Source: a virus
Taxonomy: Duplodnaviria; Heunggongvirae; Uroviricota; Caudoviricetes
DNA: 7,808 bases
Strand: one strand, 5' to 3'
IMG/VR virus record: IMGVR_UViG_2617270940_000002
Coordinates: 1 to 7,808 of that record
Shown here: positions 1 to 7,808 of the stretch, in pieces
Position numbering within the stretch: the first letter of the stretch is position 1
How the letters are laid out: each line of letters starts with the position of its first letter
Program-made: the position numbers and the translations under genes
The notes under the pieces: generated by a model
The model's database searches: none
Seen by the model: the letters and a program-made list of their open reading frames with translations, nothing else
Told to the model about the DNA's origin: nothing

Positions 1-436
1 CTCGCGCATACAACCGGGCAGCGATGTGATTGTCTGCGCTGAAATGGACGAACAGTGGGGCTACGTAGGTGCTAAATCACGTCAGCGCTGGCTGTTTTAC
101 GCGTATGACAGGCTCCGGAAGACGGTTGTGGCGCACGTCTTCGGTGAACGCACTCTGGCCACACTGGAGCGTCTTCTGAGCCTGCTGTCGGCCTTTGACG
201 TGGTGATATGGATGACGGATGGCTGGCCGCTGTATGAATCCCGCCTGAAGGGAAAGCTGCACGTAATCAGCAAGCGTTACACTCAGCGCATTGAGCGACA
301 TAATCTGAATCTGAGACAACATCTGGCAAGGCTGGGACGGAAGTCACTGTCGTTCTCAAAATCGGTGGAGCTGCATGACAAAGTCATCGGGCATTATCTG
401 AACATAAAACACTATCAGTAAGTTGGAGTCATTACC
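1..436 (+). mobile_element. IS1-family insertion sequence, partial copy (3' ~436 bp, cut by window edge) with terminal inverted repeat at inner end (~414-436)
   Basis: Frame 2-421 translates to the C-terminal part of IS1 InsB; the element ends ...CAGTAAGTTGGAGTCATTACC at 436, the reverse complement of the IS1 terminal IR GGTAATGACTCCAACTTACTG; an exact inverted duplicate lies at 7373-7808. Confidence 0.9.
2..421 (+). CDS. insB: IS1 transposase InsB, C-terminal portion (5' end outside window)
   Basis: Translation ...[30 protein letters not shown]...[15 protein letters not shown] matches IS1 InsB; the frame stays open to the window start; stop at 419-421. Confidence 0.85.
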
Positions 437-472
437 GGCGACACCCGTTGTTAACTTATCCATGGATTTCAT
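437..472 (-). pseudogene. essD: pinholin (S21/EssD-family) 5' fragment, first 12 codons only, truncated by IS1 insertion
   Basis: Minus-strand ATG at 472-470 preceded by SD GAGGTGGGG; translation MKSMDKLTTGVA carries the dual-start MKSM motif of the phage 21 S holin/EssD and runs directly into the IS1 end at 436; position matches essD next to nmpC in DLP12. Confidence 0.5.
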
Positions 473-600
473 AACCCCACCTCGCAGACAAAGCGGGTGT
501 AAATTGAGGGAATACAACGTATCGCAAAAAAGCAGAAACGTAACAGACTCGGAGTCAGTGAATAACTCAGGTATTGGGTTATCAGCTAATATCGAGACTC

Positions 601-633
601 AAAAAATGGAAAAACCCGCTCGACGGCGGGTTT
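601..633 (-). terminator. intrinsic terminator-like hairpin with U-tract (minus-strand orientation), ~130 bp upstream of the essD fragment
   Basis: Stem 612-619/626-633 (AAACCCGC/GCGGGTTT, 5 GC pairs) with loop TCGACG; on the minus strand it is followed by UUCCAUUUUUU (611-601); the plus-strand tail has only 3 T. Confidence 0.4.
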
Positions 634-639
634 AAGCTG

Positions 640-1059
640 TGTGACGAAGTAACCACTCTTAACAGCATAACCAATTTTTTACGTACGTAAACCACTAAAT
701 GATATTTGCGAGAATGCTACCGAGTATTGAAAACACCACTACAAATACATAAGCAAATCTCAACAAATAACCAACAAATAATTTCCAGCGTTATTTTTAG
801 CTGGTTTAAATTGAATCTTCAAATTATAGAGCACTTATAAATAACAGCCATTAATATAAATTGGCTAATAGATTTATTTTTATTCAGCCAAGAGCCATGA
901 ATAGGATTCGATAGAAAAAGTTCAGATAAAAATAGAGATCTACTTCACAAATCAAATGAGAAACCAAAACTTACATCTTGAAATAATCACATTGATTAGA
1001 TGAATATTTATCGCGCAGTGACATCATTTTTTAATAATAGTTCAAAAAAAGGGCTCACG
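640..1059. promoter_or_regulatory. AT-rich divergent regulatory region between porin start and the late-operon terminator; exact promoters unresolved
   Basis: ~420 bp, strongly AT-rich, no ORF of 60 aa or more; porin SD AAGGG at 1049-1053; tandem 11-bp repeat at 760-781; TATAAT hexamer on the minus strand at 828-823; no convincing -35/-10 pair found by eye. Confidence 0.3.
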
Positions 1060-2142
1060 ATGAAAAAATTAACAGTGGCAATTTCTGCTGTAGCTGCATC
1101 AGTACTGATGGCGATGTCTGCTCAGGCAGCTGAAATTTATAATAAAGACAGTAACAAGCTGGATCTGTACGGGAAAGTTAATGCTAAGCACTACTTCTCC
1201 TCTAATGATGCAGATGATGGTGATACTACTTATGCCCGTCTTGGCTTCAAAGGTGAAACCCAAATCAACGATCAACTGACTGGTTTCGGTCAGTGGGAAT
1301 ATGAATTCAAAGGCAACCGCGCTGAATCTCAAGGTTCCTCCAAAGATAAAACCCGTCTTGCCTTCGCTGGCCTGAAATTCGGTGACTACGGCTCCATCGA
1401 TTATGGCCGTAACTACGGTGTAGCATACGACATCGGTGCGTGGACTGACGTTCTGCCAGAATTCGGTGGCGATACCTGGACCCAAACAGATGTATTCATG
1501 ACTGGTCGCACCACAGGTGTTGCAACTTATCGTAACAACGACTTCTTTGGTCTGGTTGATGGCCTGAACTTTGCAGCTCAGTATCAGGGCAAAAATGACC
1601 GAAATGAAGTAACTGAAGCTAATGGCGATGGTTTCGGTTTCTCAACTACTTATGAGTATGAAGGATTCGGCGTGGGTGCAACCTATGCTAAATCTGATCG
1701 CACTAATAATCAGGTTATCTACGGTAACAACGGTCTGAATGCTTCTGGTCAAAATGCTGAAGTATGGGCAGCTGGTCTGAAATATGATGCGAACAACATC
1801 TATCTGGCCACCACCTATTCTGAAACCCAGAACATGACTGTTTTTGGTAATAACCATATTGCCAACAAAGCACAAAACTTCGAAGCTGTTGCACAATATC
1901 AGTTCGACTTCGGCCTGCGTCCATCCGTTGCTTACCTGCATTCTAAAGGAAAAGACTTGGGTGTTTGGGGTGATCAGGACCTGGTTGAATATGTTGATGT
2001 AGGTGCAACCTATTACTTCAACAAAAATATGTCCACTTTTGTTGACTACAAAATCAACCTGATTGATAAGAGCGATTTCACGAAAGCATCTGGCGTTGCT
2101 ACCGATGATATCGTTGCTGTAGGTATGGTTTACCAGTTCTAA
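1060..2142 (+). CDS. nmpC: phage-encoded outer-membrane porin, OmpC/OmpF superfamily (NmpC/Lc type), intact, 360 aa with signal peptide
   Basis: ATG 1060 with SD 6 nt upstream; signal peptide [23 protein letters not shown] then AEIYNKD...; C-terminal ...VAVGMVYQF ends in Phe as in beta-barrel porins; convergent with the Q gene as in DLP12. The ORF-track start at 1000 is an upstream in-frame extension. Confidence 0.9.
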
Positions 2143-2305
2143 TTTGATTACTAAAAGATATGTTGTGGGAGGCTTTGCCTCCCCAACATATAAGTGGCTC
2201 CCTCAAGCCACTTCCTTTAGAAGCACAACCTTGCTTCTAACTATACAAACCTTCTGTTATATATTACCCTTTATTTTTGGGGGCGTTTCAACGCCCCATT
2301 TTTAA
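2143..2305 (+). ncRNA. structured 3' region immediately downstream of the porin stop, candidate IpeX-like sRNA / 3'UTR
   Basis: Three strong consecutive hairpins (2158-2191, 15-bp stem with one bulge; 2192-2213, 8-bp stem; 2217-2240, 9-bp stem) then a terminator at 2280-2303; IpeX is described as lying immediately downstream of the nmpC stop codon and ~167 nt long, and this span is ~163 nt. Confidence 0.35.
2280..2303 (+). terminator. rho-independent terminator (plus strand) ending the porin/3'UTR transcript
   Basis: GC stem GGGGCG (2280-2285) / CGCCCC (2292-2297), loop TTTCAA, followed by A-TTTTT (2298-2303). Confidence 0.55.
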
Positions 2306-2330
2306 TAACTTTTAGTAAATAATTGGCGTA

Positions 2331-2714
2331 TTAATTAGAGTTATTAACAACGATATCCATCTCTAACCGGATATCTAATGCCATTAACATCCCTTCAATT
2401 ATGCCCTCAGCCTTCTGTAACCTTTTCCCGATATAACCATCAGAGCAGCAATGCTTACCTGCCAGTGACATGAATGTCATACCGACTACATAATAATCTA
2501 CTAATAAATCGTGCAAATCGCTGTTGTTCTTTTTCAGACGGGCCATGCACCCGCAAATGATCATCGCGTCATCGTCACAACATTGCGGGCGAGATTTTAC
2601 TTTTGAAGTAATTAATCCCTTAAAACCGGCGGCAATGGACGACCAGGTCACATCTTCATGATTATTAGCCGCCCACGCTCCCCAACGCTCAAGAACCATC
2701 TGAATATCACGCAT
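2331..2714 (-). CDS. quuD: late-gene antiterminator Q (DLP12 QuuD type), 127 aa
   Basis: Translation [26 protein letters not shown]...[16 protein letters not shown]... recognised as QuuD; ATG at 2714 with SD GGAG 8 nt upstream; the ORF-track start at 2729 is an in-frame TTG extension. Confidence 0.85.
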
Positions 2715-2799
2715 CAACTTACTCCACAAAAATCAGACCAGAACGCCAATTACAAGCAAAAATCAACGAAACAGTATTAGTTGATTGTTATCTCTGACT

Positions 2800-2940
2800 T
2801 CATACTCCTGCTCCTGTCAGGGTTTTGGCGTAATTCTTCAGTATTCGGTAATCGGTCAAAACAGAACCGGGGAAACGATATAAGCGCAGACGCCCCCAGC
2901 GGTGGCGAAGACGTTCTGCCATATAAAACTCAAACATCAT
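2800..2940 (-). CDS. ylcG: small protein YlcG-like (46 aa)
   Basis: Hand translation [46 protein letters not shown]; its ATG overlaps the rusA stop (ATGA at 2940-2937); size and position match ylcG between rusA and quuD in DLP12; below the ORF-track size cutoff. Confidence 0.6.
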
Positions 2941-3299
2941 TCATTCCCCATTTCGGTGATGGTCAGTTCCAGCCTCCCACCTTTGGTAACAGGCATCTTC
3001 ACAACGCGGTAATCAACGACCTGAGCATCATCCAGCCAGAAACCTGCTTTAGTGAGTGCGTCAAAAGCGGCTTTTTGCAGATTATCCAGGTCACGGCGAC
3101 GGCGATCCGGCATGTGGCACTCAATGCGGATTTTCACAGGCATAGCCAGGCCGATATCCAGCATTGCGTTTTTAATGATTCGGGCGACGTTATCGCGGTA
3201 TGCCTGCCCCTCTGCGCTGACGTGCGTGCGCCCGCGATTATGGCGGTAATAGCGATTATTGCTCGGAGGCCAGGGTAATGTGATGCTGTAGGTATTCAC
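2937..3299 (-). CDS. rusA: Holliday junction resolvase RusA (crossover junction endodeoxyribonuclease), 120 aa
   Basis: Translation [23 protein letters not shown]...[30 protein letters not shown]... recognised as RusA; GTG start overlapping the ybcO stop (GTGA). Confidence 0.9.
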
Positions 3300-3586
3300 G
3301 CCTTAATAACCCCCTCTTTCAGCCAGATAACCTGTGTTCTCGCCATACCTTCCAGCGCGCATTCTTTTGCATATGCAGCATCGACAAAATGTGTGCGGCG
3401 GTCGATTTCGTCGTGGCAGGCAGAACATGCAATGGTGGCAATCAGGTCTGGCGGTTTGGCACCGGTGCCGCACAATCCAGTCAGCCGGATATGTGCCAGT
3501 ACAGACGTTTCAGGGTTGCCATTACATACGCCAGGGATTCTTACCTGGCATTCCCGACTACGCGCTGCTTTTCTCAAATCAGCCAT
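3296..3586 (-). CDS. ybcO: YbcO-family putative nuclease (DUF1364), 96 aa
   Basis: Translation from ATG 3586: [37 protein letters not shown]...[11 protein letters not shown]..., Cys-rich; the ORF-track start at 3625 is an upstream extension; position between ninE and rusA as in DLP12. Confidence 0.8.
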
Positions 3587-3749
3587 GATTCCTCCTTGCT
3601 GCCAGTCGCAACCATTTTTTATCAACCAGGCTGGCGGTATATCCGAGCAGTGTTGGTATTTCGGAAGGCTTCAGCTCCGGTTTACGCTTACGACGATCTG
3701 GTACTCTGTAGATGTGTCCGTTCATGACACGAATAAGCGGTGTAGCCAT
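3579..3749 (-). CDS. ninE: NinE protein (56 aa)
   Basis: Hand translation [56 protein letters not shown]; its ATG overlaps the ybcN stop (TAATG) and its stop overlaps the ybcO start (ATGGCTGA); below the ORF-track cutoff. Confidence 0.75.
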   Translation of the reverse strand: MATPLIRVMNGHIYRVPDRRKRKPELKPSEIPTLLGYTASLVDKKWLRLAARRNHG

Positions 3750-4204
3750 TACGCCTCCTGCTTGTCGCGGAGCAGCTGGAACTCGCAGCTCTGCGGAATA
3801 GTCAGGTGGCAGCCAATATTCACCGCCCAGGCTTCAACCTTACACAGGAAGACATACATCTCTCCGGTATCAAGATCGGAGGTATGGCGTAACGACTGGA
3901 TAGTGGTGATATCACCGGTTACGACATCAACCAGGTCTTTGGTTTCATAACCGAGATATGTGTGTTTGAGAGCATCTTTTACCCAAGCTGGAGTAGCGAA
4001 CGTTTTACCCCTGCTGATGAGGTATTCACTGATTTCGCTGTACCACATGTGGCTGAGTGCATTCTGGGAAAGACTGCGTTTCTCACGCCACGGTTTAAGC
4101 ACCATGCGAAAGCATTTGCCCTCCTCCAGATAAGGCTGGATCTGCCGACCGATAGCGGTGAAGTTACCGCGATGTAATTTGATGCCATCTTGTGGGAGAT
4201 TCAC
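3749..4204 (-). CDS. ybcN: NinB/Orf-family recombination protein (YbcN-like), 151 aa
   Basis: Translation [15 protein letters not shown]...[21 protein letters not shown]... carries the NinB-like RSL-QN motif; GTG start at 4204 with SD GGAGGTG 5 nt upstream. Confidence 0.85.
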
Positions 4205-4302
4205 GCTTCACCTCCGCAGAGGTCAAACGCTGGATACAATATATCGCAGGTGCATTTCTGCATCTGTGGAGGGAGAAGAGAGTTTGGATTGTGTGTGCGC
4301 AT
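4201..4302 (-). CDS. ylcH: small Cys-containing protein, YlcH-like (33 aa)
   Basis: Hand translation [33 protein letters not shown]; SD GGGGA 6 nt upstream of ATG 4302; stop overlaps the ybcN GTG (GTGA); a 33-aa ORF directly upstream of ybcN matches ylcH in DLP12 by size and position only (sequence not recalled). Confidence 0.45.
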
Positions 4303-4391
4303 AAACGTCCCCGTTTAGCGCAGAAGTCACCGGAGTTGTTCAGGCTCCGATGACATGATTATGGCGAGTTGATTATCGCAAATCAAAGGTT

Positions 4392-4748
4392 TTAATTGTG
4401 CTTTATTCCTTCAAGCGTTGCCTTCATACCAACCAAAGAAATGTTTAGCTCTCCAACTTTCTCAGGGCTATATAATTCAGAATGAAGCCAATATTCTGAT
4501 TTATCTAAACATCTTTTAGCCAGCTCTCGATCAAAGTCTACGACTTGGGAAGACGCTTCATACCAAAGCCTATAAAGTTTTTCTTCTTCGTTTGGGTTAT
4601 TAGGCTCACCACGTTTTAATTTTTCAGTATATAAAATTGTTGAATAAATCGCAGGAGTTAATCCAGTGATTGCCCTCTGCCGCAGATCGGATTTGTTTGT
4701 TATCCACCCCAACAGACGATCTCCCATCCATGTGATAATTGTATCCAT
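4392..4748 (-). CDS. hypothetical protein, 118 aa, no family recognised
   Basis: ORF MDTIITWMGDRLLGWITNKSDL...EPNNPNEEEKLYRLWYEASSQVVDFDRELAKR...; ATG at 4748 with SD-like AAGAAGGG ~9 nt upstream; AT-rich like the recombinase; occupies the position taken by ybcM in E. coli K-12. Confidence 0.5.
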   Translation of the reverse strand: MDTIITWMGDRLLGWITNKSDLRQRAITGLTPAIYSTILYTEKLKRGEPNNPNEEEKLYRLWYEASSQVVDFDRELAKRCLDKSEYWLHSELYSPEKVGELNISLVGMKATLEGIKHN

Positions 4749-5209
4749 GCTTTAGCCCTTCTTAGTAAATAGTGTGTAGGGCGACTGAAGGACCGAGTTT
4801 ATGCTTTTTCGCATTGCTTTCAGTTAGTACACCGGTATCGCACCGGAAACAATCCTACGGCAAATTGGTTGTCTGACCTCTCGGTTTTTCGTGCATTAAC
4901 CGATACCCACTACAGTCTCGGCGAAAGCTGCACACCCCCAGGGTGTACTGGTAGCACTCGGCACAGCCTAGCACGCCACTTTCTTCTCACTATCCAGTCT
5001 AATTTTATCCCCTAGTCAGACACTCAGATGTAGTGCTCCGCAGCGGCATGCGGGGGAATACAAAAACTCGGACAAAATTGGGCCCTCCTTTTTGAATCAC
5101 TCGCGGGGATGTAGTTATTAATACATGGAAAAAGATCTGTTTTCAAATCCAACATTATATGGTTTCAATACCACGGGGTGGCTATGTGTTTCTCATTGTT
5201 AATTGGAAT

Positions 5210-5533
5210 CTACTGTAATCGATCCGAACGTAAATGCGGCAAAACTCGACTCCACTTATCATCCTGCCACGGCCGGAATTTTACATGTGCCGTTTCTCTG
5301 GCAAGGATTGCCTGTGCCTTATTGAGTATCTGGGGATATTCTTGCTCGATAGAAGTGAAGCGACCAGCTTCACGATGCTCCGCAACCTGAAGAAGAGGAG
5401 TAACGTTCTGGTAGGTAATTAACATCACATTCCCTGCTCGCCATAACCAGGCGAGTGTGCAAAGTTCGTTATCAGTGAATTGTTTTGTGATTGGGTATTG
5501 TTGAACTGCTAGAACGAGAACGCCAGCATCCAT
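5210..5533 (-). CDS. hypothetical protein, 107 aa, no family recognised
   Basis: ORF MDAGVLVLAVQQYPITKQFTDNELCTLAWLWRAGNVMLITYQ...; weak SD (GAGA); longest ORF in the region, overlapped by two shorter plus-strand ORFs; starts 111 bp downstream of the recombinase stop. Confidence 0.4.
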   Translation of the reverse strand: MDAGVLVLAVQQYPITKQFTDNELCTLAWLWRAGNVMLITYQNVTPLLQVAEHREAGRFTSIEQEYPQILNKAQAILARETAHVKFRPWQDDKWSRVLPHLRSDRLQ

Positions 5534-5644
5534 TGGCAGTCTCTATAGTAAAACCATAGCTCAGGACGCTTCGTTCAGGATAGATAATTTTATTGTACTT
5601 ACCTAACTTTCTTACTATAGCACGGTTGAAAAAGTGATTATTAC

Positions 5645-7171
5645 TCAAAAATAAACCTCACCATCAACCATATATTTGAGAGTACTTATCGCCTGCTGGG
5701 CGGATATTGTTTTCATTAAAGGATAGTGTTTAAAAACAATGCCATTCATAAAATAGATATCACAGGTTTTATTATCTGTATTGATTATGATTTTTTCGAA
5801 TGTTTTATAGGCAAGTGTACGACATAGCTCTCGCCCATTTTTACTGGTTAAGTCAATAGCATGAAAATCACCAAGTGAACTCACCGCTTTACTCTTCAAA
5901 GTTTTTAATGATACAGAAGCCCTTCGTAATTCCTTATCTAATACTCTGATTTTTTCTGCTATAGCGGTAACTTCAGGCGCAACAGATAATGCAGCAATTA
6001 AATTATTAATTTTCATCTGGAGCTCAATAATTTTCAACTCTAAAGTTTCATTAGCATCTTTCTTGTTTTCAACTGGTTGGATTTTACTACAATTAAAAAG
6101 CAACTCATTAATGATATTATAATCAACCAAATCTCTCTTTATTGATGGCCTGTCACATCGATGGAGTCTTCTCATCGGACAAACATAATAGCCATGCAAA
6201 CTTCCAGATACCGCATGAACAATCATGGTATTACCACAAGCCTCGCACTTCATAACTGTTCGAAGTAGATTTACCAACATAGGATTTTTGCTACTATTGC
6301 TAATACCAAAAGGTGCCAACCGAATTTCCTGTACAGCGTAAAACAAATCATCTGATATGACTCTGGGATAATAGCCAGCGATTTCACTTATTCCTTTACC
6401 TCTTGCACGATATGAAGGTACGCATATACCTATCAGAGCTTTATTCGCTAATAATTTTTCAATTACAGAAGGTCCCCATGCACTTTCTTTTCCTGAGAAA
6501 TTCTTTACAGCATGATCATTTAAATACTTGGCTATTGCATTCAATGAGCGCCTTTCCATCCTGAGTTTAAAAATTAGCTCAATAGTTTTCACCCTGTCGG
6601 GGTCTGGAACAAAAGCCGTTCTTTTGTCATCTAAGGAGAGACATCTCGGACAAGACGCCGTCATAATCGTACCTGATTCCAGTGCATCCTGCCGTTTTTT
6701 CTTCCATGATAATTTAACCCGACTTGACTTTATCTCGCTTTCTTCATTTGCCCTTTGTGCTATAAGTATGGCTTTTATTAATGAATATGGCTCATTCAAA
6801 GAGTCAATATTATAGACTGTATTGTCGCAAAGAGTTATAACATCAATACCGTGATTCAAAATCAATTTCAGACGTTCAATCGCTTCACCGACTTTTTCTC
6901 TTGAAAGTCTGTCCAGACTTTCAACTAACAATGTAGTTCCTGGCAATATATAACCATGCTCTATAGCATCTAAAAATTCCGAAAAAGCTCCTGATTGTGC
7001 ATGCTTTCCTTTGAATGCACTTAATCCTAAATCTTCATATGTTATGGTATCAAGATAATAATCACTATTTACCTTTAACCATTCAGCAATAAGTCTTCTC
7101 TGTCGGTTTAATGAGTCGCCAGACATCTGACCTGGTGATGAAAATCGCATATATGCTATGGCTTTTTTCAT
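5645..7171 (-). CDS. large serine recombinase (resolvase-type catalytic domain + recombinase domain + Zn-ribbon + coiled coil), 508 aa
   Basis: N-terminus AIAYMRFSSPGQ...RQRR fits the serine-recombinase active-site pattern (Y-x-R-x-S-S-x-x-Q); Cys pairs CPRC and CEAC...CPMRRLHRC; C-terminal heptad-rich region (ELKIIELQMKINNLIAAL); SD AGGTG before ATG 7171; strongly AT-rich. Same length and relative position as ybcK in DLP12, but the sequence was not verified. Confidence 0.85.
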   Translation of the reverse strand: MKKAIAYMRFSSPGQMSGDSLNRQRRLIAEWLKVNSDYYLDTITYEDLGLSAFKGKHAQSGAFSEFLDAIEHGYILPGTTLLVESLDRLSREKVGEAIERLKLILNHGIDVITLCDNTVYNIDSLNEPYSLIKAILIAQRANEESEIKSSRVKLSWKKKRQDALESGTIMTASCPRCLSLDDKRTAFVPDPDRVKTIELIFKLRMERRSLNAIAKYLNDHAVKNFSGKESAWGPSVIEKLLANKALIGICVPSYRARGKGISEIAGYYPRVISDDLFYAVQEIRLAPFGISNSSKNPMLVNLLRTVMKCEACGNTMIVHAVSGSLHGYYVCPMRRLHRCDRPSIKRDLVDYNIINELLFNCSKIQPVENKKDANETLELKIIELQMKINNLIAALSVAPEVTAIAEKIRVLDKELRRASVSLKTLKSKAVSSLGDFHAIDLTSKNGRELCRTLAYKTFEKIIINTDNKTCDIYFMNGIVFKHYPLMKTISAQQAISTLKYMVDGEVYF

Positions 7172-7372
7172 GGTGACACCTGCTAACGTATGCTTTTATA
7201 AACCTTAGTGGTGGGATATAATTTTTGTTTAATTTTTATTTAAAAAGACAATTAAGGTCACATTATCTTGAATATACAACAATAATCGTATTGCAATTTT
7301 CTTACGCCATAATCTTGAAAGCACAAAAGAATACATAAAAAAAATAAAGACATTAACAAAAAGCATAAAACG

Positions 7373-7808
7373 GGTAATGACTCCAACTTACTGATAGTGT
7401 TTTATGTTCAGATAATGCCCGATGACTTTGTCATGCAGCTCCACCGATTTTGAGAACGACAGTGACTTCCGTCCCAGCCTTGCCAGATGTTGTCTCAGAT
7501 TCAGATTATGTCGCTCAATGCGCTGAGTGTAACGCTTGCTGATTACGTGCAGCTTTCCCTTCAGGCGGGATTCATACAGCGGCCAGCCATCCGTCATCCA
7601 TATCACCACGTCAAAGGCCGACAGCAGGCTCAGAAGACGCTCCAGTGTGGCCAGAGTGCGTTCACCGAAGACGTGCGCCACAACCGTCTTCCGGAGCCTG
7701 TCATACGCGTAAAACAGCCAGCGCTGACGTGATTTAGCACCTACGTAGCCCCACTGTTCGTCCATTTCAGCGCAGACAATCACATCGCTGCCCGGTTGTA
7801 TGCGCGAG
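7373..7808 (-). mobile_element. IS1-family insertion sequence, partial copy, exact inverted duplicate of 1-436, terminal IR at inner end (7373-7395)
   Basis: Begins GGTAATGACTCCAACTTACTGATAGTG at 7373; 7373-7808 is the reverse complement of 1-436 (spot-checked at both ends; InsB translations identical). Confidence 0.9.
7388..7807 (-). CDS. insB: IS1 transposase InsB, C-terminal portion (5' end outside window)
   Basis: Translation identical to the left-copy InsB fragment; frame open to the window end. Confidence 0.85.

Follow-up and report, generated by a model that had tools for sequence, protein, structure and literature searches.

Inverted IS1 ends bordering a DLP12-like prophage segment in an IS1-rich Escherichia coli genome

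Gene content and relatives of the prophage segment

Analysis of a 7,808-bp stretch of DNA (the window) revealed a unique core of 6,936 bp (437-7372), which represents the nin/Q/porin part of a DLP12-like lambdoid prophage and which is bordered on each side by a part of IS1. The window is all of WGS contig JNPB01000136.1 (1-7808) of assembly GCA_000703445.1. The following features were assigned.

1..436, plus strand: IS1 stub, nt 333-768 of a 768-bp isoform (PF03400; identical to the copy in strain BY63); it holds the 3' part of insB (ORF 2/26-421), the right terminal repeat ends at 436, and position 1 is the contig terminus
437..472, minus strand: 5' remnant of the holin gene essD, 12 codons (MKSMDKLTTGVA), by alignment to intact essD in NCTC9699
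1060..2142, plus strand: intact porin gene of the NmpC/OmpD type, 360 aa (PF00267, E = 4e-152; RefSeq annotation ompC)
2331..2714, minus strand: quuD, late antiterminator Q, 127 aa (PF06530, E = 4e-53; annotated in relatives)
2800..2940, minus strand: ylcG, 46 aa (gene call, PF26818; annotated in relatives)
2937..3299, minus strand: rusA, Holliday junction resolvase, 120 aa (PF05866, E = 7e-23)
3296..3586, minus strand: ybcO, 96 aa, DUF1364, putative nuclease (PF07102, E = 4e-41)
3579..3749, minus strand: ninE, 56 aa (PF05322)
3749..4204, minus strand: ybcN, 151 aa, DNA base-flipping protein by annotation in relatives
4392..4748, minus strand: hypothetical protein, 118 aa, conserved in these prophages (gene calls, annotation), with no Pfam match
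5210..5533, minus strand: 107-aa ORF with only the C-terminal domain of a P22-type antirepressor (PF10548, E = 1e-15), probably a remnant
5645..7171, minus strand: ybcK, large serine recombinase, 508 aa (PF00239, PF07508, PF13408)
7229..7366, minus strand: ylcJ ORF, 45 aa (PF23688 gene call; alignment to the empty site)
7373..7808, minus strand: second IS1 stub, exact reverse complement of 1-436, with the right terminal repeat (IRR) at 7373 facing inward and the contig terminus at 7808

The original prediction had named a porin, Q, RusA and a serine recombinase as the cargo between the IS1 ends, and the Pfam search recovered all of them. In addition, the core contains ylcG, ybcO, ninE, ybcN, two small ORFs, and the P22 antirepressor C-terminal fragment. 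YbcN gave a weak NinB-like match below the Pfam cut-off (PF05772, E = 1.3e-4). The porin gene is a moron gene located between Q and the holin gene; its exact allele occupies this position in 9 of the 10 places shown and is widespread, being present in about 7,500 blocks of the collection. The exact ybcK allele was present on only two contigs in the public collection (exact-sequence look-up). An Rfam scan of the window returned no RNA family above threshold.

Comparison with complete E. coli genomes revealed the cargo in collinear form and free of IS1 in 56 genomes that cover at least 80% of the window, with 99.0-99.5% identity to the IS1-free prophages listed among them. Phage Turner is collinear over the full cargo length at 95.8% identity. 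The gene order ninB-like, ninE, ybcO, rusA, Q, (porin moron), holin is that of annotated prophages and phages; the DLP12-type defective prophage of K-12 and the functional phages Turner, PhiR70_1, Perceval, and 4A7 carry the same genes in the same order, namely ybcK, ybcN, ninE, ybcO, rusA, ylcG, quuD, porin, essD. Unlike DLP12, which lies at argU in K-12, the prophage of the close relatives adjoins ybhC, at the lambda attachment site. The segment studied here further differs from DLP12 in that its porin gene is intact and its essD gene is cut by IS1. No true plasmid was found to carry the cargo in the form of an intact unit.

IS1 ends and their junctions with the prophage

A repeat search of the window revealed one long inverted repeat of 436 nt, whose arms (1-436 and 7373-7808) are 100% complementary. 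The next-best inverted pair in the window comprises only 27 nt at 74%, so that the 436-nt pair lies far beyond chance. Each arm encodes the C-terminal 131-139 aa of InsB (PF03400, E = 5.8e-76, profile positions 2-131 of 131) and is closed on its inner side by the right terminal repeat of IS1, which reads ...CAGTAAGTTGGAGTCATTACC at 416-436. The IRR, GGTAATGACTCCAACTTACTGAT, forms the boundary with the flanking DNA at 414-436 and 7373-7395. A full 768-bp IS1 copy in strain BY63 ends in the same sequence as the inward tip of the stubs. Over the 436 nt, this isoform has diverged from IS1A by about 7%. The stub was matched at 100% by 6 of the 12 hits listed and at 99% or more by 85 records. The InsB C-terminal region, the IRR, and the clean join at the terminal nucleotide are features shared with IS1 simple insertions (768 bp, InsA/InsAB'). 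In contrast to a full IS1, the window holds only nt 333-768, with the left terminal repeat (IRL), insA, and the target duplications outside its view. The left end (IRL side) of this isoform is GGTGATGCTGCCAACTTACTGAT, and the full BY63 copy carries the 9-bp duplication GGTGATGAT. A 9-bp target duplication is classical for IS1 (PMC12428005).

The inner flanks of the two stubs differ, with GGCGACACC at 437-445 on the left and CATAAAACG at 7364-7372 on the right; each of these 9-bp stretches is the presumed target of the adjacent element. Alignment with uninterrupted prophage (NCTC9699, L003) revealed that homology stops exactly at 436|437 and 7372|7373. The essD start codon lies at window position 472 on the minus strand, and the left IS1 cuts the gene after codon 12; an ORF (356-517) runs from essD into IS1. 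The right IS1 is located in the 5' end of ylcJ, 6 nt beyond the called start and 201 nt upstream of the ybcK ATG (7171). An independent Logan assembly of SRR1186759 contains the right junction at 100% identity. The IS1-to-prophage junctions are shown to be real and distinct, the left one being known from the deposited contig. The structural part of the original prediction held: it had described the ends as exact reverse complements with the insB/IRR end of IS1 facing inward, on which the repeat search, PF03400, and the BY63 comparison agree, and it had placed two separate insertions correctly, in essD and 201 bp upstream of the recombinase gene. It had also called for empty sites in related genomes, which NCTC9699 provides, since its uninterrupted prophage aligns up to both IS1 tips.

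In 5,426 complete E. coli genomes, neither the whole window nor 140-nt probes spanning the individual junctions detected either junction. Matches that seemed to carry the left or right arm (H1-H3 and H19) were rejected because their IS1 is at another place, either about 2 kb farther outward or within ybcK. The exact junction patterns had no match in GTDB representatives or IMG/VR, and the left junction had none in JGI metagenomes. Two further IS1 junctions from this assembly, one located in phoE and one upstream of cbpA, were likewise found in no complete genome searched; apparent full-length matches of their probes consist of two pieces hundreds of bases apart.

Origin of the mirror-image contig ends

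The original prediction had cautioned that the window could simply be cut at a repeat, and the evidence supports this caveat. The identical 139-aa truncated InsB product is on record for 13 contigs. The 10 of these that were shown, the window included, all belong to GCA_000703445.1 and carry the stub at a contig end. In the 9 other contigs fetched, the 436-nt stub was byte-identical in 8 and had a single mismatch in 1; it occupies the terminus of each and is followed by a different, unrelated chromosomal flank. Like the window, contig L015 (6,581 bp) of the same assembly has IS1 at both ends. The stub begins at nt 333 of IS1, within 40 nt (305-344) over which two IS1 isoforms are identical; these differ by about 10% elsewhere, and the other end of L015 carries one of them. 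Such a start fits a break at an ambiguity in the assembly graph. The genome has many copies of this isoform, and the assembler, unable to cross them, halted at nt 333 each time, so that the two ends became exact 436-nt mirror images.

Because the stub is common to nine other contig ends, it is the assembler that produced the perfect symmetry and made the two copies look identical. The mirror symmetry of the window ends is an assembly artifact, and the arms are therefore uninformative on the identity or completeness of the two copies: farther from its inner tip, each arm represents a consensus of many copies, so that neither of the two copies need be full length. Repeat-bounded short-read contigs of IS-rich Enterobacteriaceae likewise end inside a multicopy IS at a fixed internal break, with the same stub at many ends. 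The window differs from them in nothing material; here both ends meet an IRR and are hence mirrored, an arrangement expected in about one-quarter of randomly oriented IS1 pairs. Two other explanations of the symmetry were rejected. A single collapsed IS1 copy is ruled out by the fact that one IRR end cannot meet two different flanks, and a circular excision product with one IS1 would have different IS1 ends, IRL and IRR, at its two termini.

Simple insertions, rearrangement, and composite transposition

We consider the locus to be an ordinary, strain-private IS1 pair in a prophage of an IS1-rich E. coli, with the holin gene inactivated by one of the two insertions, seen through a contig that ended at IS1 (probability of about 0.85). 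In the source genome, the core is bounded by two oppositely oriented IS1 elements, each with its IRR end facing the core. These elements would have arisen by two independent simple insertions mediated by the InsAB' transposase, each probably with its own target duplication of 8-9 bp in the outer (IRL-side) flanks, which lie beyond the contig. Such insertions predict, in window orientation, ...CTGCTGAGGTGCCATAGGCGACACC|GGTGATGCTGCC... on the essD/rrrD side and ...GGCAGCATCACC|CATAAAACGAGGCTCATATAAATAT... on the emrE side. With the orientation preserved, a contig from the essD/rrrD side would terminate in ...GGTGCCATAGGCGACACC joined to the IS1 left end, and a contig from the emrE side would start with the IS1 left end joined to CATAAAACGAGGCTCATAT. 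The inverted geometry with the same end inward is also what intramolecular replicative inversion by IS1 leaves behind.

An unlikely alternative is that the pair was made by, or has undergone, an IS1-mediated rearrangement, so that the segment is now inverted or joined to nonprophage DNA. The routes would be intramolecular replicative transposition of one IS1 or homologous recombination between the inverted copies, and inversion by either route predicts the swapped partners ...ATATTTATATGAGCCTCGTTTTATG|GGTGATGCTGCC... and ...GGCAGCATCACC|GGTGTCGCCTATGGCACCTCAGCAG.... IS1 is able to transpose replicatively (PMC12428005). Under the Shapiro model, a replicative inversion would leave two copies that point inward with the same end, although every inverted pair has this geometry and the contig looks alike in both orientations. 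The genome is rich in IS1, and a further stub of this isoform adjoins ybhN (contig L010), a gene that on the K-12 map is about 15 kb from the lambda attachment site. The proximity of this stub to the prophage site of the relatives makes local IS1 activity plausible; positive evidence for a rearrangement was not found. It is highly improbable that one or both IS1 joins are assembly chimeras, with no IS1 beside the segment. Draft assemblies are least reliable where a contig ends inside a repeat, and only the deposited contig backs the left junction. Against this, the independent Logan assembly gives the right junction base for base, and both joins combine the IS1 terminal nucleotide with a clean break of homology, as transposition yields and as would be unexpected of a misjoin.

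The main claim of the original prediction, a Tn1681-type transposon or invertible segment, found no support. Pairs of IS1 can mobilize the DNA between them, as in Tn9 with direct copies and Tn1681 with inverted ones, and the window resembles both in having two IS1 copies around a few kilobases, and Tn1681 also in their inverted orientation. Here, the inverted IS1 ends flank a 6,936-bp segment, which could suggest a composite transposon of about 8.5 kb that has moved or is moving as a unit via its outer IRL ends. A unit that had transposed would have nonprophage DNA outside both IRL ends and one common direct repeat of 8-9 bp. However, the cargo is in native order, and both inner flanks run on exactly as in the uninterrupted phage genome. 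Neither the IS1-cargo-IS1 unit nor its junctions recurred in the complete E. coli genomes, the junction searches in GTDB representatives, IMG/VR, and (for the left junction) JGI metagenomes point the same way, and no true plasmid carried the intact cargo unit. Unlike Tn1681 and Tn9, the segment has a native phage context, no second occurrence, and no sign of movement as a unit; neither several contexts nor foreign cargo was found. The identity of the arms carries no information on a transposon. With at least 13 copies of the isoform in about 5 Mb, we estimate the chance of a pair within 7 kb at about 0.2 under random placement, and it would be higher still in dispensable prophage DNA. Our literature search retrieved no paper supporting a composite transposon in the present case. 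We regard such a transposon as very unlikely.

The same low confidence applies to the view that the 6.9-kb Q-porin-rusA-ybcK segment has become a mobile or invertible cassette through the inverted IS1 elements. In principle, the DNA between any two IS1 copies can be mobilized or inverted, but nothing shows that this has occurred here. If the segment were invertible, an IS1-IS1 flip would break the link between the Q-dependent late promoter and the rest of the lysis genes; if it were mobile, a phage porin and a serine recombinase would be carried to new replicons. The evidence instead suggests ordinary IS-driven prophage decay and not a composite mobile element.

The biological weight of the finding is small, as work on E. 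coli and Shigella genomes routinely meets IS1 hits in prophage genes and contigs that end in an IS. When a window consists of a whole contig and has exact mirror-image ends, these are best taken for a repeat boundary as long as outer flanks are lacking. One modest point concerns the biology: the cut in the holin gene at codon 12 probably disables the Q-dependent lysis cassette of the prophage, while the porin, Q, RusA, and YbcK genes are intact.

Contig ends and the mirrored IS1 arms

A repeat search of the window revealed an inverted repeat formed by positions 1-436 and 7373-7808 (436 nt, 100% complementary); the next-longest inverted pair comprised only 27 nt at 74%. In each arm an ORF encodes the 131 C-terminal residues of the IS1 transposase InsB (PF03400, E = 5.8e-76, full 131-position profile). 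The right terminal repeat of IS1, ...CAGTAAGTTGGAGTCATTACC, closes the left arm inward at 416-436, and its complement starts the right arm from 7373. The bases located just inside the arms are GGCGACACC (left flank) and CATAAAACG (right flank). The repeat search, the ORFs and the PF03400 match thus bear out the mirror arms, the inward right terminal repeats and the differing inner flanks described in the original prediction.

An exact-protein look-up with YbcK revealed that the window is the entire contig JNPB01000136.1 (7,808 bp, 1-7808) of assembly GCA_000703445.1, so that both ends of the window are contig ends. The same type of look-up with the 139-aa truncated InsB product (window 2-421) gave 13 contigs with an exact match. 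All 10 of those shown, the window included, belong to GCA_000703445.1 and carry the stub at a contig terminus. The 436-nt stub DNA was found in nine other contigs (eight without a mismatch, one with a single mismatch), each of which enters a different chromosomal region past nt 436. Because the same stub occurs at other contig termini with a different flank each time, 436 nt is simply the point where the assembler halts on entering this isoform from the IRR end. The stop point corresponds to IS1 nt 333. Across the 40 nt that contain it (305-344), the window's isoform does not differ from another one that is about 10% diverged from it and is also present in this assembly, at one end of contig L015. 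This position fits a break at an assembly-graph ambiguity. The deeper portion of each arm is a consensus over many copies. Since many contig ends share the stop point, arm length, symmetry and identity hold no biological information. The caveat in the original prediction that the contig might have been cut at a repeat was therefore the correct interpretation of the symmetry, given a whole-contig window and the same stub on nine other contigs.

L015 (JNPB01000134.1, 1-6581; 6,581 bp) is a second contig with IS1 at both ends, which indicates that IS1-bounded contigs are common in this assembly. At one end it carries the IRR stub of the isoform in the window, differing only at nt 418, and at the other a 540-nt IRL-side stub of the different, about 10% diverged isoform. 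Its interior contains a fimbrial operon of the chaperone-usher type and a fragment of IS1.

The stub shows 92.7% isoform identity over 436 nt to an IS1A copy. The isoform is fairly uncommon in complete genomes (100% match in 6 of the 12 hits listed; at least 99% in 85 records). E. coli BY63 (L016, 369-1136) carries a full 768-bp copy with the first bases GGTGATGCTGCCAACTTACTGAT and the direct 9-bp duplication GGTGATGAT on both sides. In its length and duplication this copy fits classical IS1, which is described as 768 bp long, with the terminal repeats IRL and IRR and a duplication of 8-9 bp (PMC12428005). The duplication GGTGATGAT agrees at 8 of 9 bases with the IS1 left tip GGTGATGCT; the target of the BY63 copy thus resembled the element's own end.

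Insertion sites and gene content

The 6,936 bp between the arms belong to a DLP12-like lambdoid prophage and represent its nin-Q-lysis part.

Genes between the IS1 arms, in window order
ATG at 472, minus: essD holin gene, first 12 codons only
Between the essD remnant and quuD, plus: porin, intact, 360 aa
After the porin, minus: quuD, antiterminator Q
After quuD, minus: ylcG, rusA, ybcO, ninE and ybcN, in that order
After ybcN, minus: two ORFs of 33 aa and 118 aa
5210-5533, minus: 107-aa fragment of a P22-type antirepressor, limited to its C-terminal domain
5645-7171, minus: ybcK, large serine recombinase, 508 aa
Beyond ybcK, minus: ylcJ, last gene of the segment

The junctions were mapped by aligning the window to the uninterrupted prophage of NCTC9699. 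At both junctions, identity was perfect from the IS1 tip across the adjacent 79-83 prophage bases, apart from one base of an A run on the right, and homology was gone beyond the tips (436|437 on the left, 7372|7373 on the right). These breaks place the left IS1 within essD, after codon 12. On the right, IS1 sits upstream of ybcK on its emrE side, 201 nt from the start codon and within the 5' end of ylcJ. The right junction is repeated base for base in Logan, an independent assembly of read set SRR1186759, in which one contig matches window 2702-7398 at 100% and reaches 26 nt into IS1. The existence and position of both junctions and the interruption of essD are established, and the alignment agrees with the two separate insertion sites predicted originally from the inner flanks. 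Two different sites require at least two IS1 ends. A single collapsed IS1 copy was rejected, because one copy has just one IRR end.

The A run in ylcJ (window 7337-7344) is a homopolymer of polymorphic length: it counts 8 bases in the window and 7 in NCTC9699, whose ylcJ carries a frameshift annotation. The 107-aa ORF is followed by about 460 bp (4749-5209) that contain no ORF of at least 50 aa. Together they are probably a decayed antirepressor gene, which many relatives share in this form. Allele frequencies are very uneven inside this one module: the exact YbcK allele (5645-7171) occurs in the public collection only in two contigs, the window and its Logan twin, and about 7,500 blocks contain the allele of the porin gene located 3.5 kb from it.

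Relatives of the prophage and IS1 elsewhere in the assembly

At least 80% of the window is covered in 56 complete E. coli genomes, with 99.0-99.5% identity among those listed. Most listed relatives contain the segment as one collinear piece without IS1 at either boundary, and in all three records inspected the prophage adjoins ybhC, with integrase and excisionase genes alongside. Among sequenced lambdoid phages, Turner covers 100% of the module at 95.8% identity, and 82-85% of it is covered by PhiR70_1, Perceval and 4A7. The porin allele occurs widely in identical form; in 9 of the 10 places shown it is flanked by Q and the holin gene, the other prophage modules varying.

Prophages with the identical porin allele (L018, L021, L025 and L026, about 13,300-16,800) vary in the genes that separate replication gene P from ybcN. 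This slot contains ybcK and the P22-antirepressor fragment in the window (4749-7228), a SIR2-domain gene with a 285-aa partner in L025, a 631-aa NACHT/NB-ARC protein in L026, and an Arc-type repressor with a full antirepressor in L021. It resembles a variable hotspot for accessory or defence genes.

A further IRR stub of the isoform was found on contig L010 (JNPB01000027.1, 1-900) beside ybhN, with a 99-aa ORF between. On the K-12 map, about 15 kb separate this site from the lambda attachment site at ybhC, which the prophage occupies in relatives. IS1 may have hopped locally or mediated a rearrangement around the prophage. On contig L008 the phoE site carries IS1, and six unrelated complete genomes (H113-H118) have IS1 within a few hundred bases of that site, at a different nucleotide; IS1 may target phoE repeatedly.

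Origin of the arrangement

The original prediction proposed chiefly a composite transposon of the Tn1681 type or an invertible segment. The likeness to Tn1681 is limited to two inverted IS1 copies around DNA, whereas the second context or foreign cargo of a unit-mobile element was looked for and not found. Neither junction had a match among 5,426 complete E. coli genomes, in the GTDB representative genomes or in IMG/VR, and the left junction was not found in the JGI metagenomes. In the plasmid collection, just two records contain 80% or more of the cargo (94-95% identity); with lengths of 1.3 Mb and 4.9 Mb they are evidently chromosome-sized, and the other hits are partial phage-like pieces. 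The inner ends of the cargo are collinear with the phage genome, as insertion in place would predict, and the sequence gives no sign of transposed foreign cargo. Movement as a unit is accordingly very unlikely, and the proposal is unsupported.

IS1-mediated inversion, by replicative intramolecular transposition or by recombination between the inverted copies, is also unlikely, though less so. The geometry is compatible with it, and the contig would look identical in either orientation, but every inverted IS1 pair shows this geometry. A chimeric join at the IS1 boundary is the least probable explanation, since each join coincides precisely with the terminal nucleotide of IS1 and the right one was reproduced independently.

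Two other IS1 junctions of the assembly were likewise shared by no finished genome searched, indicating that the IS1 landscape is private to this strain. With random placement of at least 13 copies of this isoform in about 5 Mb, we estimate the chance of some IS1 pair within 7 kb at roughly 0.2 (1 - exp(-C(14,2) x 14 kb / 4.8 Mb)). This chance is higher in dispensable DNA, and inverted orientation would be expected for half of all pairs; the arrangement thus requires no special explanation. Its components, IS1, a DLP12-type lambdoid prophage and a repeat-bounded draft contig, are all already known. We consider it about 85% probable that the resident lambdoid prophage of an IS1-rich E. coli received two independent IS1 insertions. 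Each copy would be complete, with its own target duplication. The cut in essD would abolish holin function and hence Q-dependent lysis, and the insertions may persist because the prophage DNA is dispensable.
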